A DNA stretch of 64,000 nucleotides, from the IMG/VR virus record IMGVR_UViG_3300045988_117464, positions 62,738 to 126,737 of that record. One strand, written 5' to 3'. A program made the position numbers and the translations under genes. Below the pieces are notes generated by a model. It searched no databases. It saw nothing but the letters and a program-made list of their open reading frames with translations, and had not been told where the DNA came from. Within the stretch, counting starts at the first letter, position 1, and every line of letters starts with the position of its first letter. Of the stretch, positions 806 to 29,500 are shown piece by piece. The DNA is from a virus.

Positions 806-1946
806 CAGTTATTCTCATATTTCTATGAGGGCTGGACTATCTTTTACTATAATATATATAAATTATAGCACACCATTTCGAACTACGTATCAATAGTAGT
901 CCTACTTCCGGTCTCACCCGGAATAGTCTCTACAATATTTATCTTAATGGATATTTTAAATTTTCGTCTTTATCAATAGCACCTATATTAACTCTACGCA
1001 CTGTTTCATCAGATGTTCCAGTTAATTTTACAATATCTTTATATAGGAGATTAGTATTTAATAAATATTCTTTTATTAATTGTCTTTTATATTTTTGTGG
1101 AGTTATTTTTCTAATAGGATATTCGCCTTTATAATATCCTTTTTGCAATGTTCCATAATTAAATTTTTTAATAGTTGATTCTCCTAAATTATATCGTTGT
1201 GCTAGTTCTTTAAAAGTTAGTTCAGGTTTTATTAAATCTTCAATTAAAGCATCATAAATATCATTAGAAATTCGATATCTACATAAAGGATATATTTCTT
1301 TTTTATTATAAAAATATTTTCCAGAATTGATACCTGAAATAAAAGTTTTAGATATGGGATAATATTCTTGTATTTTTGAATAAGATGTTTCATCTTTAAT
1401 CATTATTTTTATCTTTTCAACATCTTCTTGTGTTAAAAAAGACTTCCAACTATTATTTCCGCCTTCTAAAACATTATATCCCCATTGAGTTAATAAACTT
1501 TGTTCTTTTTTAATCCAATAACTTTCACGTTCATTTACTAAATCATATGTTTTAGCATCTGTTATAATTTCAATAATTTCAATTTTAAAATTGTCATATC
1601 CATATTTACGAATTGCTTGATGGATTTTATCATTATAATTTACACTATTAGGATTAAAAGAACAACTTTTATGTTCATTAACTCTTCTTTGAAAATTATT
1701 AGTCTAACCTATATATTTTTTATTATTAATTAAATTCGTATATTTATAAATATAAAATATCATTTTATTTCTCCTTTAAAATATATTAAAGGACCATTAA
1801 GACATTTATCACGGGATTGGTATATATTAATGATTCCTTCATTAATACTTAACTTTCCCCGTTAGCAAATTAATAAGTTTAGCCCCAAAAAGGGCTATTA
1901 ATTTACCCCTGTGATAACAGGTTAGGTGTGTAAGGGCAAGCTATTT
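806..1946 (-). mobile_element. Group I intron 2 in dnaE, carrying a GIY-YIG homing endonuclease gene
   Basis: 5' exon ends ...cct caa tta ggg t (ends in U). Intron begins aaatagcttgccc... and contains ggctaacgggga and aatcccgtg motifs near its 5' end. Its 3' region carries gaactacgtatcaatagtag...ggaatagtctctacaat (R/S-like P7 elements). Terminal G at 806 precedes the exon atgcattt. Joining the exons restores the conserved G-Y-A-F-S-L-N-H-S. Confidence 0.7.
939..1763 (-). CDS. GIY-YIG homing endonuclease (intron-encoded), with an in-frame TAG at 1704-1706
   Basis: N-terminus MIFYIYKYTNLINNKKYIG-(TAG)-TNNFQRRVNEHKS is a GIY-YIG motif; the TAG falls where Gln is usual (YIGQT). C-terminal HTH-like repeats (STIKKFNYG, ETVRRVNIG). 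ATG at 1761-1763 is preceded by ggag. Confidence 0.75.
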
Positions 1947-3081
1947 ACCCTAATTGAGGAGCAACTGCAATTTCCCAAAAGTATTCAGCAGATTTTTCAT
2001 TATCAAATTTACTAAATACTTGTTCTTTTAATTGTGGAATTTTAGCCATTTGCTTTTTAGCAACAATCTTACGCGCAGTATTAGCTTCACCAAGAGTAAA
2101 ATGAGCTACATCCATAAGAATTTCCATCATTTGCTCTTGAATAGGACAACATCCATAATATTTATCACAATGCTTATGCATCTTATCAATTAATTCTTGC
2201 GGAAGATGCTGAGCCTTCATTTCATCATCAAATACTTTAATACCCGAATGTTGAATGCGATAATATCTATCTTGCTGTGATTCCTTACCTTTTTCAGACA
2301 TAAGACGCATCATAGCATTGGCCGCCGTCATTTCCATAGGGTCTTGGGGTTTAAGGCGTTTTGCTATTGCCAAACCGACTCCTGTAGAAAATTGGAATAC
2401 ATCTAATACATCACCAGCAGCAAGGTGGTCCCAAATTGCTTGATCAGTTGTATCTATTACTTCTGGATGAATATATTTATTATAAAATTCTCGTAAAGAT
2501 AATTCTGGAACCTACTTATCTTTTAGAAGTAATTGATAACAAGTAATAATTTTATCAGAAGCTTCAGTTACAAGGAAGTCATATTTTGTGTCTCCAGCAG
2601 CTTCCGCTTTATGAAGATCCCAACAAGTAATCATATCTCCGCTAGGAGTTCTCATAAATGATGCGGTATCAAATGGATCGTCACCATATAAAATAACGCC
2701 AGAAGCATGAGAAGAACGTTTATTAACTATTCCTTCAATATATACAATAATATCCAAAAGACCAGGATATTGATTTACTTCTCGAATAAATGCTTGAACG
2801 GGTTTACGATCTTTTTCCTCATTGCCATAAATAACATCATGGATAGGCCATAAAAATCCACGCTCTTGAGGAATTAATGAAGACATATATTGAGCATTAT
2901 CAACATCAATTCCTTCTGGAAATTCTTCACTTCTATATCCACGGCAAGCAGTTAAAATACTTTGTTTAGTGCCTTCAGTTCCAAATGTAGCAACTTGAAC
3001 CAATCCCAATTCTCCGCGTTCTTTTCTAATTGCTTTGAAAATTGCTGGACGTTTACTTGGAGCAAGGTCAATATCAATATC
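1947..3081 (-). CDS. dnaE: DNA polymerase III alpha (DnaE-like), exon 2; in-frame TAG at 2512-2514
   Basis: DIDIDLAPSKRPAIFKAIRKERGELGLVQVATFGT...GDVLDVFQFSTGVGLAIAKRLKPQDP...YYGCCPIQEQMMEIL matches DnaE DFDVDF...VAQIITFGT...GDTLGVFQLES...RLQPD...GIILYQEQVM. The frame continues straight through the TAG between ORFs 2512..3009 and 1945..2373. Confidence 0.8.
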
Positions 3082-4236
3082 CGTTTTTATTTATTGGACT
3101 ATATTTTTCACGATAATTTACTGAGAGCATTTTAATTCAATTATCGCTAGAACATCTTTCAGATGGTGCTTATCTCCACCTTACATAATAGTCTCTACAC
3201 ATTTAATCTTTATTTATCTATTTCCAATAATAACCTTTATATAAAGTATTTTCTTTTATCGCTTTATCTAACTAAGTATGTCCTTTTAATCCTAAGAATT
3301 CTAATACTGCGGTTTTAGCATTAAAAATTTGAATTAAATTATTATTTTCATCATACATAGCAATTTTTTTACCATTGATAGCCTTATTACCTTTTTTACC
3401 ATACATACCATTTTTATTTCCTAATGTCTTACCAATACTATTAATAGACATTTTTTGTTTTGATTCAATAGTATGATGTTTACCATACATTCCATTATTT
3501 TCTCCAGATGTCAATTTACTCATTTTATTTTTAAACTCTGGAGTTTTATAAATTGAATTATCTCTTTCAAATTCAGCCCAATATGATAAAAATGATTTTG
3601 TTTCTTCGCTATGCTATTTGCCATACATTCCATTATTTTTACCACGATTTAATTCACTTAATTTTCTTTTTAAAGCTTTTTTTTCTTCTTCAGTATATCC
3701 AGCGGTAGTATTACCGCCTTCTCCGCCTTCATGAATATTATAAAATAATGGATTAGATACTGCATTATATAAAGCTATAAAATATTTTTCTTTTTCTTTA
3801 TTTTCTTCATTATTATTAGAAATATATAAAATAGACTTAGTAAAGTTTTCTTTTCCGTATTTATTAATAGCTCTTTTTAAAATTTTGCCACTTCCTAAAT
3901 AGGAATCATCTAATTCTCCATAATGTTTTCCAATATATTTCATACCATTTATGTTATTTGTAGTTAAATAAATATAATGTTGTTTCATCATTAAACAACT
4001 CCTTTCATAATTATTTAACTATTAGAATTAGACAATGACTTGACTTTGTCCAAGATTTTTAGCACGGTATTATCAATCTATCCATTTTCAGGACATAGAC
4101 TCTCTTAGTCAGTTGATTCGCTCTTAAAATTAATTAAGACTTATTTCACTGATACCGTTAGCCTGCATCAAGCAGACACCCATTAAGCAATGGTTAATGT
4201 TCTTTTTTTACAACTGCCCAATATCAATATTAGACT
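3082..4236 (-). mobile_element. Group I intron 1 in dnaE, carrying a GIY-YIG/NUMOD homing endonuclease gene
   Basis: Joining ...ERAELP (5' exon ends cct, U) to DIDIDL... restores the conserved DnaE motif ERxxMPDFDxDF. Terminal G at 3082. Structured non-coding flanks (gcaggctaacgg..., aatagtctctacac) resemble the other introns. Confidence 0.6.
3272..3991 (-). CDS. GIY-YIG homing endonuclease with NUMOD3-like repeats; in-frame TAG at 3614-3616
   Basis: IYLTTNNINGMKYIGKHYG...NIHEGGEGG (GIY-YIG); repeated NNGMYGK / NGMYGKHHT NUMOD3-like motifs. ORFs 3614..3991 and 3272..3523 are in one frame across a TAG. Confidence 0.75.
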
Positions 4237-28283: not shown

Positions 28284-28457
28284 TATTGGCCCTTTCTGCG
28301 TTTAACTCAATGAAAGATTTACGAGGGCCGACTGATTCCCCCATCAAATCCATAAATGTTTTATTTACAAGATTCATATCATCCATTGTAATTTGTTTTA
28401 AGGTGCGAGTTTCTGGATTCATAACCAATTCCATCTCATGGGTGTCCATTTCGCCTA
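28284..28457 (-). CDS. gyrB: Type II topoisomerase subunit B (GyrB-like), exon 2 (C-terminus)
   Basis: |LGEMDTHEMELVMNPETRTLKQITMDDMNLVNKTFMDLMGESVGPRKSFIELNAERANIDV matches GyrB GLGEMNPEQLWETTMDPE...LMGDxVEPRRxFIEENA..ANIDI. Confidence 0.75.
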
Positions 28458-29500
28458 CATGTTTCTCCAATATTACTATTGGCACTGACTAGTTCTTCGC
28501 TCCGGCTAACGTATTAACTGCCATCATCACGCCTACCTTTTTGAAAGTATGTATCAATAATACTTCCTACTCCCCGACAAAGGGGATAGTCGATACAGGA
28601 TTAAACTACGATATTTTTCCAATTCTAATAACTCCATATATTTGTAAAAGAACCATATGTAAGTTTATTAGAATAATCTTTATAAACTTCTCTTATATTT
28701 TCTCCATTTTTACGACGCAATCTTATTTGATAAACATCTTGTTCGGTCATTTTAGAGCGTCCATTTTTACTTCCCTAATTAGAAGTATTATGTTTATGAA
28801 AATTTTTATTTTCAATTGTATATACTTCTGGCATAATATTTTTCCAAGTATCACCATTCCAAATTTTATGGAAGCCAGATTCACCAATTAAATTTTTATA
28901 ATCTTCATAAACTTCATTTTTTCTTTCTTGATTATTATAACGAGTTCTAATATTAATAACATCTTGTTTAGTTAATTTATGACTCGGATGACTTTCTTCA
29001 GTATTAAATTGCCCTCCAGGAGTCATATTATACTAATCAGGATAAGTATTATAATATTTTATATAATACTATTCTCTATCATTAAGTTCTTCGATAGAAC
29101 ATTCTTCTAATATCTCAAAAGAAAAATTATTTATTCCATATTCTAATATATCTTTATATAACTTTTTATTTTTTTCTCTATACCAGTTATATGATTTTTT
29201 ATGTTCTCTAAAACGCTATTCTATTTGTGTGCTTTGTCCTATATAAGATAAGTTATTTATTTTATTGGTTATTTTATAAATACCAATCATTTTAATTACC
29301 TCACTAATTATAAGTAAGATAATATCGTAGTTCTTCCCACGAGATTATCTCCACTAATATTTAACGCTCATTCATTTCAATTTTTCCTGAAATGTCCTAA
29401 ATATTAGCAAGACTGCCTCGTTAGCCGCCAACTGGAAAATTTTACCAATTCGCGACCCCGCCGATCAGCGGAAAAGTAGGTAAGGGCCAGACTTCCTCGT
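28458..29500 (-). mobile_element. Group I intron in gyrB, carrying a GIY-YIG homing endonuclease gene
   Basis: 5' exon ends ...atg aaa ggg t (U); intron terminal G at 28458; 3' exon starts ta ggc gaa atg. Joining gives R-M-K-G-L-G-E-M, which is exactly the GyrB consensus RYKGLGEM. Intron motifs ggcggctaacgagg / aatctcgtggga (5') and tacttcctactccccgacaaaggggatagtcgatacagg (3'). Confidence 0.7.
28607..29289 (-). CDS. GIY-YIG homing endonuclease (intron-encoded), in-frame TAGs
   Basis: MIGIYKITNKINNLSYIGQSTQIE-(TAG)-RFREHKKSY...NNFSFEILEECS; repeated KLTKQDVINIRTRY / KMTEQDVYQIRLRR linker motifs. Confidence 0.7.

Follow-up and report, generated by a model that had tools for sequence, protein, structure and literature searches.

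The DNA analysed here (the window) is a stretch of 64,000 nucleotides (nt) from the IMG/VR virus record IMGVR_UViG_3300045988_117464, positions 62,738 to 126,737. It contains about 30% G+C and has essentially all its genes on the minus strand. Positions 1-31 kb form a phage replication module with genes for the alpha protein of DNA polymerase III (PolIII alpha, dnaE), a RecD-like helicase, a RecJ-like protein, primase, dnaB, a Sak4-like ATPase, ligase, gyrA, RNase H and gyrB. No close cultured relative was found for this phage, and its GyrA shares no more than 42% identity with sequences from human faecal phage contigs. The module is interrupted by five insertions, each 1035-1231 nt long: two in dnaE and one each in dnaB, gyrB and a gene for a membrane/coiled-coil protein with a GIY-YIG domain (hereafter giy). 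An initial annotation of this stretch had placed five related elements in these genes; all of them are present, and the outer limits that it gave, 806 and 29500, are exact intron ends. From their sequence anatomy, the exact restoration of the exons, the covariation of their helices, homologous introns at the same sites and the protein domains that they encode, we are highly confident that the five insertions are mobile group I introns, subgroup IA-like, which carry GIY-YIG homing endonuclease genes (HEGs) and occupy the replication module of a low-GC, gut-type phage that reads TAG as glutamine.

The interrupted genes are arranged as follows, where (-) marks the minus strand and the nhmmer matches to the two conserved intron halves, described below, are given with each intron.

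4237-5614 (-): dnaE exon 1, PolIII alpha from the PHP domain to ...ERAELP; the PDB alignment is continuous over the junction.
3082-4236 (-): group I intron dnaE-I1, 1155 nt, of a sister subfamily; last base G.
3203-3991 (-): HEG of dnaE-I1, 262 amino acids (aa), with an N-terminal GIY-YIG domain and two NUMOD3 modules; 3 in-frame TAG; in Pfam, after replacement of TAG by Gln, NUMOD3 61.8 bits and GIY-YIG 19.5 bits; phrog_314 homing endonuclease, 1.5e-38.
1947-3081 (-): dnaE exon 2, DIDIDL... to ...APQLG; one in-frame TAG.
806-1946 (-): group I intron dnaE-I2, 1141 nt, main family; P1 AGGGU/GCCCU; last base G; 5' half 1937-1806 (E 1e-12), 3' half 934-807 (E 7e-22).
939-1763 (-): HEG of dnaE-I2, 274 aa, GIY-YIG (41.5 bits) and a C-terminus of helix-turn-helix (HTH) type; 1 TAG, at YIG[Q]T.
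1-805 (-): dnaE exon 3, YAFSLNHS..., which continues beyond the window edge.
15732-16765 (-): dnaB exon 1, ending ...VKYIF (ATATT|); 2 in-frame TAG.
14697-15731 (-): dnaB group I intron, 1035 nt, main family; P1 UAUU/GAUA with U.G; last base G; 5' half 15705-15610 (E 1.8e-19), 3' half 14863-14696 (E 1.9e-44).
14867-15544 (-): HEG of the dnaB intron, 225 aa, GIY-YIG (35.1 bits) and HTH_3 (25.7 bits); 4 TAG; phrog_7168, 6e-37.
14198-14696 (-): dnaB exon 2, HDYIHTSMKIL...
22366-23165 (-): giy exon 1, with a transmembrane segment and coiled coil, ...GIYKITNLENQMCYVGQAV; 4 TAG.
21135-22365 (-): giy group I intron, 1231 nt, main family; P1 CGGU/GCCG; last base G; 5' half 22357-22255 (E 1.4e-14), 3' half 21289-21137 (E 2.3e-36).
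21297-22193 (-): HEG of the giy intron, 298 aa, GIY-YIG (34.0 bits) and HTH repeats; 8 TAG.
20921-21134 (-): giy exon 2, NIADRWKQHIKRG...; the GIY-YIG domain spans the junction.
29501-31253 (-): gyrB exon 1, ...FELGRMKG.
28458-29500 (-): gyrB group I intron, 1043 nt, the most divergent of the main family; P1 AAGGGU/GCCCUU; last base G; 5' half 29488-29334 (E 1.1e-8), 3' half 28599-28458 (E 5.4e-11).
28601-29290 (-): HEG of the gyrB intron, 229 aa, GIY-YIG (36.0 bits); 5 TAG.
28273-28457 (-): gyrB exon 2, LGEMDTHEM... to the stop codon.

In all five insertions, the base before the 5' junction is a U that pairs with a G in a P1 helix of 4-8 base pairs (bp), and the final intron base is a G. The spliced GyrB aligns without gaps to S. 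aureus GyrB over RMKG|LGEM, and the spliced DnaE does the same with Thermus DnaE at both ELP|DIDID and LG|YAFSLNHS. These gapless alignments to solved homologues show that the junctions already proposed for dnaE-I1, dnaE-I2 and gyrB were right. Moreover, the downstream exons start in the middle of a motif and in frame, within the Walker B strand of DnaB and within KGLGEM of GyrB.

For dnaB, a search of PDB sequences returned no match, and phage genomes served as the comparison instead. At this point, homologues that lack an insertion have HDVKYFRFDYIHTS and HNVGYVYFDYIHSS (Enterococcus phage VRE9_3, Bacillus phage BUCT083) and VKYVFMDYIHTS (L118; L-numbers denote IMG/VR viral contig loci fetched for comparison). 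The junction ATATT|...GTG|CCATGAC yields HDVKYIFHDYIHTS and is the only one that gives the length of these three intron-less homologues, a comparison that the initial annotation had suggested. The same junction rule produces (I/V)FHDYIH in L044, L046 and L048, the occupants of this site with both intron ends in hand, and the 3' junction of L011 conforms to it. Among the relatives at the dnaB site, P1 carries compensatory changes in both directions, from A-U to G-C and from G-C to A-U. Two other dnaB junctions were considered and rejected: one after AGGGT, which inserts 6 extra residues inside the Walker B strand and falls out of frame in L044, and GAC CCT|TGC, which inserts 3. Three 5' exons had been described as ending in agggU; this is correct for dnaE-I2 and gyrB, but the dnaB exon ends in ...ATATT, and the AGGGU near it lies within the intron, in a covarying P1-extension hairpin on the intron side of P1 (CGACCCU...AGGGUGCCGGG).

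In giy, the junction GCGGU|...UUUG|CAAUAUU yields YVGQAVNIADRWKQH, and L060 is interrupted at the same point. The spliced host protein contains a single GIY-YIG domain (residues 249-329, 38.4 bits) that runs across the junction. We preferred GCGGT|...TTTG| to an alternative placement, GGCCGGT|...ATATTG|, since it gives the GIY-YIG motif its canonical spacing and is shared with L060. An intron within a GIY-YIG gene had been regarded as unusual; the host does encode such a domain, but the arrangement recurs at the same site in L060 and the host is not a typical HEG, since a transmembrane segment and a coiled coil precede the domain. As for P10, it measures 8 bp in dnaE-I1 and 5 bp in gyrB, reaches 7 of 8 by eye in giy, and is not evident for dnaE-I2 or dnaB.

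Four of the introns (dnaB, giy, gyrB and dnaE-I2), which we call the main family, have a set of elements in common on the RNA strand, with variant bases in gyrB and dnaE-I2. Their 5' half reads ...(A)ACUUUUCC, hairpin X, GGGUC, hairpin Y, GCUAACGGGGAA ... AAUCCCGUGGGAAA, and their 3' half CCUGUAUCGACUAU, a hairpin, AGUAGGGCUACUAUUGAUACGUAGUC ... CGAAAUGG ... a hairpin ... UAAAAGAUAGUC, a hairpin and then the G. Profile hidden Markov models built from external sequences only recovered exactly four window copies of each half, with E values far beyond chance (1.8e-19 to 1.1e-8 for the 5' halves, 1.9e-44 to 5.4e-11 for the 3' halves), and did not detect dnaE-I1. No sixth copy of the family was found by nhmmer over the window, a search that is blind to sister-type introns, having missed dnaE-I1. 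The initial annotation had attributed conserved flanks to all five insertions, which is true of four, dnaE-I1 having short core motifs only. The motifs that it quoted do exist, but they mix the strands: the 5'-side strings are in RNA sense (minus strand), while gagactacgtatcaatagtagccctacttcc and gggaatagtcgatacagg are plus-strand. Likewise, P7 is indeed a pairing of GACUA with UAGUC, formed by GACUA(U) in CCUGUAUCGACUAUUCCC and (A)UAGUC in AAGAUAGUC, but it is not where it had been placed, the GACTA of gagactacgtatcaatagtagccctacttcc (plus strand, 14798-14828) being the reverse complement of P7.1(3')-P7.2.

A 14-nt core motif retrieved 119 viral contig loci, among which the full 3' core has 56 matches and versions of the intron lacking an open reading frame (ORF) are present in 7. 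To score the fold, we joined and aligned the 5' and 3' halves of 38 non-redundant ORF-less constructs, to which the window contributed four, under a hand-written structure composed of P3, X, P4, P5, P6, P7, P7.1, P7.2, an optional P7.3 and P9. Hairpin Y and P8 were omitted from the formal count because their MAFFT columns were too misaligned; P8 hairpins are present, with variable length. Standard pairs fill 92.1% of the cells, compared with 34-47% when the partners are slid by 1-3 columns, and 30 of the 46 pairs have changes on both sides. The covariation score is 0.404 versus 0.156, and none of 500 shuffles attains any of the observed measures.

P3, P4, P5 and P6 all covary. Of these, P3 and P6 are especially informative because each connects RNA upstream of the ORF with RNA on its downstream side. 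P6, the closing helix of the ORF-bearing loop, is 100% paired and includes GC, CG, AU and UA types, and P3 is paired in 86.8% of cells, with compensatory changes such as AAACU/GGUUU, GUAUGU/ACAUAC and CACACC/GGUGUG. In each of the 38 sequences, the two P7 strands (GACUA/UAGUC) are complementary. The extra helices of subgroup IA were also found: P7.1 is 99% paired, with double changes in all four of its pairs, and P7.2 is 100% paired. RNAalifold alone recovers X, P4, P5, P6, P7, P7.1 and P7.2. The secondary-structure check proposed at the outset supports the P3-P9 helices. For P3, a short GGC/GCC pairing beside P4 was also considered, but the long-range helix upstream of hairpin X, which covaries, was preferred. 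In the divergent gyrB intron, P4 is maintained by a compensatory ACGAGG/UCUCGU pairing, and J8/7 is expanded. This J8/7 holds GUUAGCCG, a perfect 8-bp complement of CGGCUAAC at the J3/4-P4 boundary (28458-28560 and 29415-29430, minus strand), that occurs in no other family member; it could be an alternative inhibitory pairing, or chance.

The fifth intron, dnaE-I1, belongs to a sister subfamily and not to the main family, whose layout it follows with only short stretches and core motifs of sequence in common. Its P1 is AACUGCCU/GGGCAGUU with U.G, and its P3, AGAACAU/AUGUUCU, is followed by hairpins X and Y and then by GCUAA. P4 (ACGGUAU/AUACCGU), P7 (GACUAU/AUAGUC) and P8 (CGAUAAUU/AAUUAUCG) are present. 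The P7.2 loop, AGAUAAGCA, is unlike that of the main family, and P7.1 is absent, with one such hairpin only. Its closest relative is an intron of Enterococcus phage EF1 at the identical site (RPELP|DVDID), with an HNH HEG annotated as 'Phage intron'.

Other members of the main family occupy the same sites in other phages. An intron of this family is found at the dnaE-I2 site in L069 and EF1, and at the giy site in L060. The dnaB site is occupied in L011, L044, L046 (ORF-less) and L048, and empty in L118, VRE9_3 and BUCT083. The same intron and HEG at the same site, with empty sites alongside, constitute a site-specific association. The family also extends to Lak megaphages, and the contigs that carry it include standard-code ones, with intact HEGs, as well as TAG-recoded ones. 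In L046 and L085, the ORF-less intron at the dnaB site has a second 3' core about 500 nt downstream, possibly a neighbouring second intron. The ORFs in the P6 loop of relatives (L026, L066, L105, L112, L070, L078) are mostly GIY-YIG, with HNH/NUMOD4-like ones in some and a MEKQTR... type, which indicates that endonuclease genes are swapped within one ribozyme scaffold.

Under the standard code, the five intron ORFs in the window are fragments; with TAG read as Gln, they become proteins of 225-298 aa, a feature that the initial annotation had missed. After this replacement, Pfam GIY-YIG matches all five, four of them at 34-41.5 bits (cutoff 22.6), and the C-termini contain two NUMOD3 modules in dnaE-I1 and HTH modules in the others. 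Two more GIY-YIG ORFs, 31235-31984 and 42224-42964 (both minus strand), have NUMOD1/I-HmuI-like C-termini, 3 and 5 TAG, and 37% mutual identity; with no family core alongside in the nhmmer search, which misses sister-type introns, they are probably free-standing (Seg-like). In these seven GIY-YIG ORFs, 29 of the 29 in-frame stops are TAG, with no TAA or TGA despite about 70% A+T, and TAG sits at conserved Gln positions (YIGQT, LHQAFRKYG). Read-through is also needed in dnaE and dnaB, in the RecJ-like gene (9730-11478; 582 aa, 6-7 TAG) and in a lysin/amidase-like gene (33485-34786; 9 TAG). The density of TAG is 16.3 per 1000 codons in the GIY-YIG ORFs versus 2.9 elsewhere (about 5.5-fold), and 60 ORFs are free of TAG, among them most structural genes at 44-60 kb. 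From this pattern, the phage appears to decode TAG as Gln. An HNH endonuclease ORF (7116-7637, minus strand; 172 aa, with Zn-ribbon-like CxxC pairs and HNH) lies immediately upstream of the helicase gene without a flanking intron core. It was considered as a sixth intron and rejected, the space being insufficient for a 3' core, and we took it as a free-standing HEG.

Taken globally, the proposal of group I introns with GIY-YIG HEGs is sustained by the U.G pair of P1, the terminal G, the in-frame exons, the covarying helices and the GIY-YIG matches in five of five. Several observations nevertheless weigh against it. At the Rfam gathering score and E<=10, the window gave no group I match, and no ORF-less relative attains the 50 bits that are the gathering score of RF00028 (Intron_gpI), L098 having 38.1. 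In dnaE-I1 as well as in the main family, hairpins X and Y separate the P3 5' strand from GCUAA-P4, whereas the RF00028 consensus has P2-type hairpins before P3; the canonical subgroup IA order P1-P2-P3-J3/4-P4 was not found in this comparison, which is with the RF00028 consensus only. P7 is invariant in the 38 constructs, and covariation is uninformative for it. P1 has just 4 bp in the dnaB and giy introns, and the J8/7 region of gyrB is atypical and expanded. As regards the proteins, the GIY-YIG score of the dnaE-I1 ORF (19.5 bits) is below the Pfam cutoff of 22.6, and no suppressor tRNA with anticodon CUA lies within the 64-kb window, which has only tRNA-Cys, tRNA-Lys and tRNA-Gly.

The absence of an Rfam match in the window is explained by ORF inserts of 600-900 nt, and the shortfall against RF00028 probably by these inserts together with the displaced hairpins. 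The ORF-less member L098:22-254 aligns with model positions 1-253 (38.1 bits, E 2.3e-8) and resembles RF00028 over the whole model, with P4-P6, P7, P8 and P9 in register. The model is, however, forced to misplace P3, because X and Y come after the P3 5' strand and not before it. The sub-cutoff score is likely due to the X/Y architecture. The covariance-model search proposed in the initial annotation was thus negative for the window itself, but it returned a full-length relative under the cutoff. In the seven loci with ORF-less members, the only match at the gathering score was an unrelated, canonical group I intron in L097 (2532-2784, minus strand; 72.6 bits), whose P3 strand, AAAACUUUUUU, directly adjoins P4. 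It has the AAAACUUUU and GAAAUGG P3 motifs in common with the main family, a member of which L097 carries in addition.

Mechanistically, we propose a course of catalysis, homing and expression that is read from the sequence. The host gene would be transcribed through the intron, and the RNA would fold into a P1-P9 ribozyme. The terminal U of the 5' exon would form a U.G wobble with the internal guide sequence in P1, where an external guanosine would attack; the freed exon would in turn attack after the terminal G, so that the exons are ligated in frame and encode DnaE, DnaB, GyrB and the GIY-YIG-domain protein once more. The ORF, looped out of P6 and with its own Shine-Dalgarno sequence in each intron, would leave the core undisturbed. 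The endonuclease would cut intron-less alleles of co-infecting relatives, and repair would copy the intron in. Finally, with TAG so dense in the HEGs, production of the endonuclease would be limited or postponed until suppression is available.

Among the alternatives, the one that survives best keeps the elements as genuine group I introns of which at least one (gyrB, dnaB and giy being the candidates) is not self-splicing and needs a protein cofactor, either a maturase-like HEG or a host factor. The short P1 of dnaB and giy would fit such a dependence, as would the aberrant J8/7 and divergent 3' half of gyrB (E 5e-11 versus 2e-44 for dnaB) and its CGGCUAAC/GUUAGCCG complement, which could misfold the core. 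Nonetheless, all five introns have kept their core helices and splice-site features intact, and the interruption of essential replication genes argues for efficient splicing; we consider a cofactor requirement unlikely, with perhaps one chance in a handful.

A second possibility is that the phage uses the standard code and that the HEG ORFs are decayed pseudogenes with real TAG stops, inside introns that splice and are no longer mobile. HEG decay inside introns is common, the HEGs of most family relatives are intact under the standard code, and the suppressor tRNA was not found in the window. Decay does not fit, however, with stops that are TAG in 29 cases out of 29 and at conserved Gln positions, nor with TAG inside the essential dnaE and dnaB and the RecJ-like and lysin-like genes, and we hold this explanation to be very improbable.

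Least probable of all, by a small step, is that the insertions are HEG cassettes flanked by conserved repeats, or remnants of dead introns, with no splicing and with split polypeptides that assemble: phage genes split by HEGs do exist and no Rfam match was obtained at the curated threshold, but P3, P6 and P7 pair across the ORF (P3 and P6 with covariation), ORF-less versions at the same sites imply that the flanks do not depend on the HEG, and the downstream exons open mid-motif and in frame at junctions that restore the motifs to the residue.

Other features of the window were noted along the way. On the minus strand, a repeat family of 12 copies (for example 17323-17391, 19916-19984, 25050-25118, 45975-46043 and 53583-53651) has the form of TTGA(C/T)TTTTT...TATAAT-like promoters with a Shine-Dalgarno sequence after them, which suggests a Firmicutes-type host; none of the 12 copies is inside an intron. 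The tRNA genes form a cluster at 60370-62087 (minus strand), with tRNA-Cys(GCA), tRNA-Lys(UUU) and tRNA-Gly(UCC). G+C rises to 0.39-0.43 at 40001-42000 and 54001-58000, compared with about 0.30 in the rest of the window, and about four tandem repeats of 57 nt (19 codons), two copies of which are 95% identical, lie inside an ORF at 38924-39139.

Two genes of the module change frame near their start. Codons 1-19 of dnaE (MRSYFNCHSHTMYSNLRLL; 5554-5614, minus strand) are in another frame than the remainder (DCINRPTALIDKAIELG...), and the frames join at CTT TGA C (5560-5554), the heptamer of the RF2 +1 frameshift site, with an apparent +1 change. Either a programmed +1 shift or a surplus T, introduced when a T run was assembled, could account for it. 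The start of the RecD-like helicase (...ERYTCIAGYA; 7037-7100, minus strand) hits a TAA, and its Walker A motif (LTGSGKST) resumes in the -1 frame at GCT TAA C, the frame change lying at 7042-7037. This change also falls in a T run, with a sign opposite to that of dnaE, and therefore favours assembly indels.

Returning to the group I intron assignment, its practical meaning is one of annotation. Without intron models and under the standard code, the 30-kb replication module appears as about 20 gene fragments, while removing the five introns and reading TAG as Gln produces intact dnaE, dnaB, gyrB and GIY-YIG-domain genes and five full-length endonucleases. The family is common in phage metagenomes and lies below the Rfam group I cutoff, so that split genes of this kind are probably mis-annotated widely. 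More tentatively, and with more doubt than confidence, the family may represent an uncatalogued group IA subclass with P2-type hairpins transposed to between the P3 5' strand and J3/4, widespread in gut phage contigs, Lak megaphages and Enterococcus phages and systematically below the Rfam threshold, in which the TAG codons of the HEGs would act as a timing switch in recoded phages.

Phage subgroup IA introns with HEGs are well represented by those in td, nrdB and nrdD of T4, in the DNA polymerase genes of SPO1 and Bastille, and in orf142 and nrdE of Twort. In such introns, two additional helices, P7.1 and P7.2, separate P7 from the P3 3' strand (PMC3984707). The introns described here resemble them in a core with P7.1 and P7.2, in an ORF looped from a peripheral helix, in GIY-YIG or HNH HEGs, in their insertion at conserved codons of replication and nucleotide-metabolism genes, and in the occurrence of several introns per genome. 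They differ in having two hairpins between the P3 5' strand and J3/4-P4 and not before P3, in the sub-cutoff Rfam score, in the presence of five introns within 30 kb and in the TAG-recoded HEGs. Our analysis adds neither a new kind of group I intron nor a new homing mechanism; what distinguishes this case is the five introns in 30 kb, the sub-cutoff hairpin arrangement and the TAG-rich HEGs.

For the last of these points there is a precedent in the TGA-recoded 'Agate' phages of the gut, where a group I intron HEG located in an early gene contains the recoded stop preferentially, and where recoding was proposed to withhold the endonuclease until late infection (Borges et al., bioRxiv 10.1101/2021.08.26.457843). 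In the Agate phages TGA is read as Trp and one intron HEG is concerned, whereas here TAG is read as Gln and seven GIY-YIG ORFs, five of them intronic, are enriched. The TAG-rich HEGs are a TAG-type parallel to the Agate pattern and not a new idea; they offer a second example for the published proposal that recoding gates HEG expression, a timing that is a proposal in both systems.

The closest cultured counterparts are the Enterococcus phages EF1 and EF5 (MF001358, MF001361), whose PolIII alpha gene is interrupted at the two codon positions that are occupied here, ...ELP|D(I/V)DID and ...G|Y(A/S)FS. Intron 1 of EF1 has the architecture and the AGAUAAGCA loop of dnaE-I1, with an HNH endonuclease where dnaE-I1 has GIY-YIG. 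Intron 2, at the dnaE-I2 site (VQMG|YSFS), belongs to the main family, with 80% identity over 160 nt to a family query built from the dnaB intron, and its GIY-YIG ORF, annotated merely as 'hypothetical protein', is 44% identical to the dnaE-I2 ORF over the full length. EF1 differs in using the standard code, its HEGs being without in-frame TAG. With introns at both dnaE sites in EF1, the phenomenon is already present, and partly annotated, in cultured phages.

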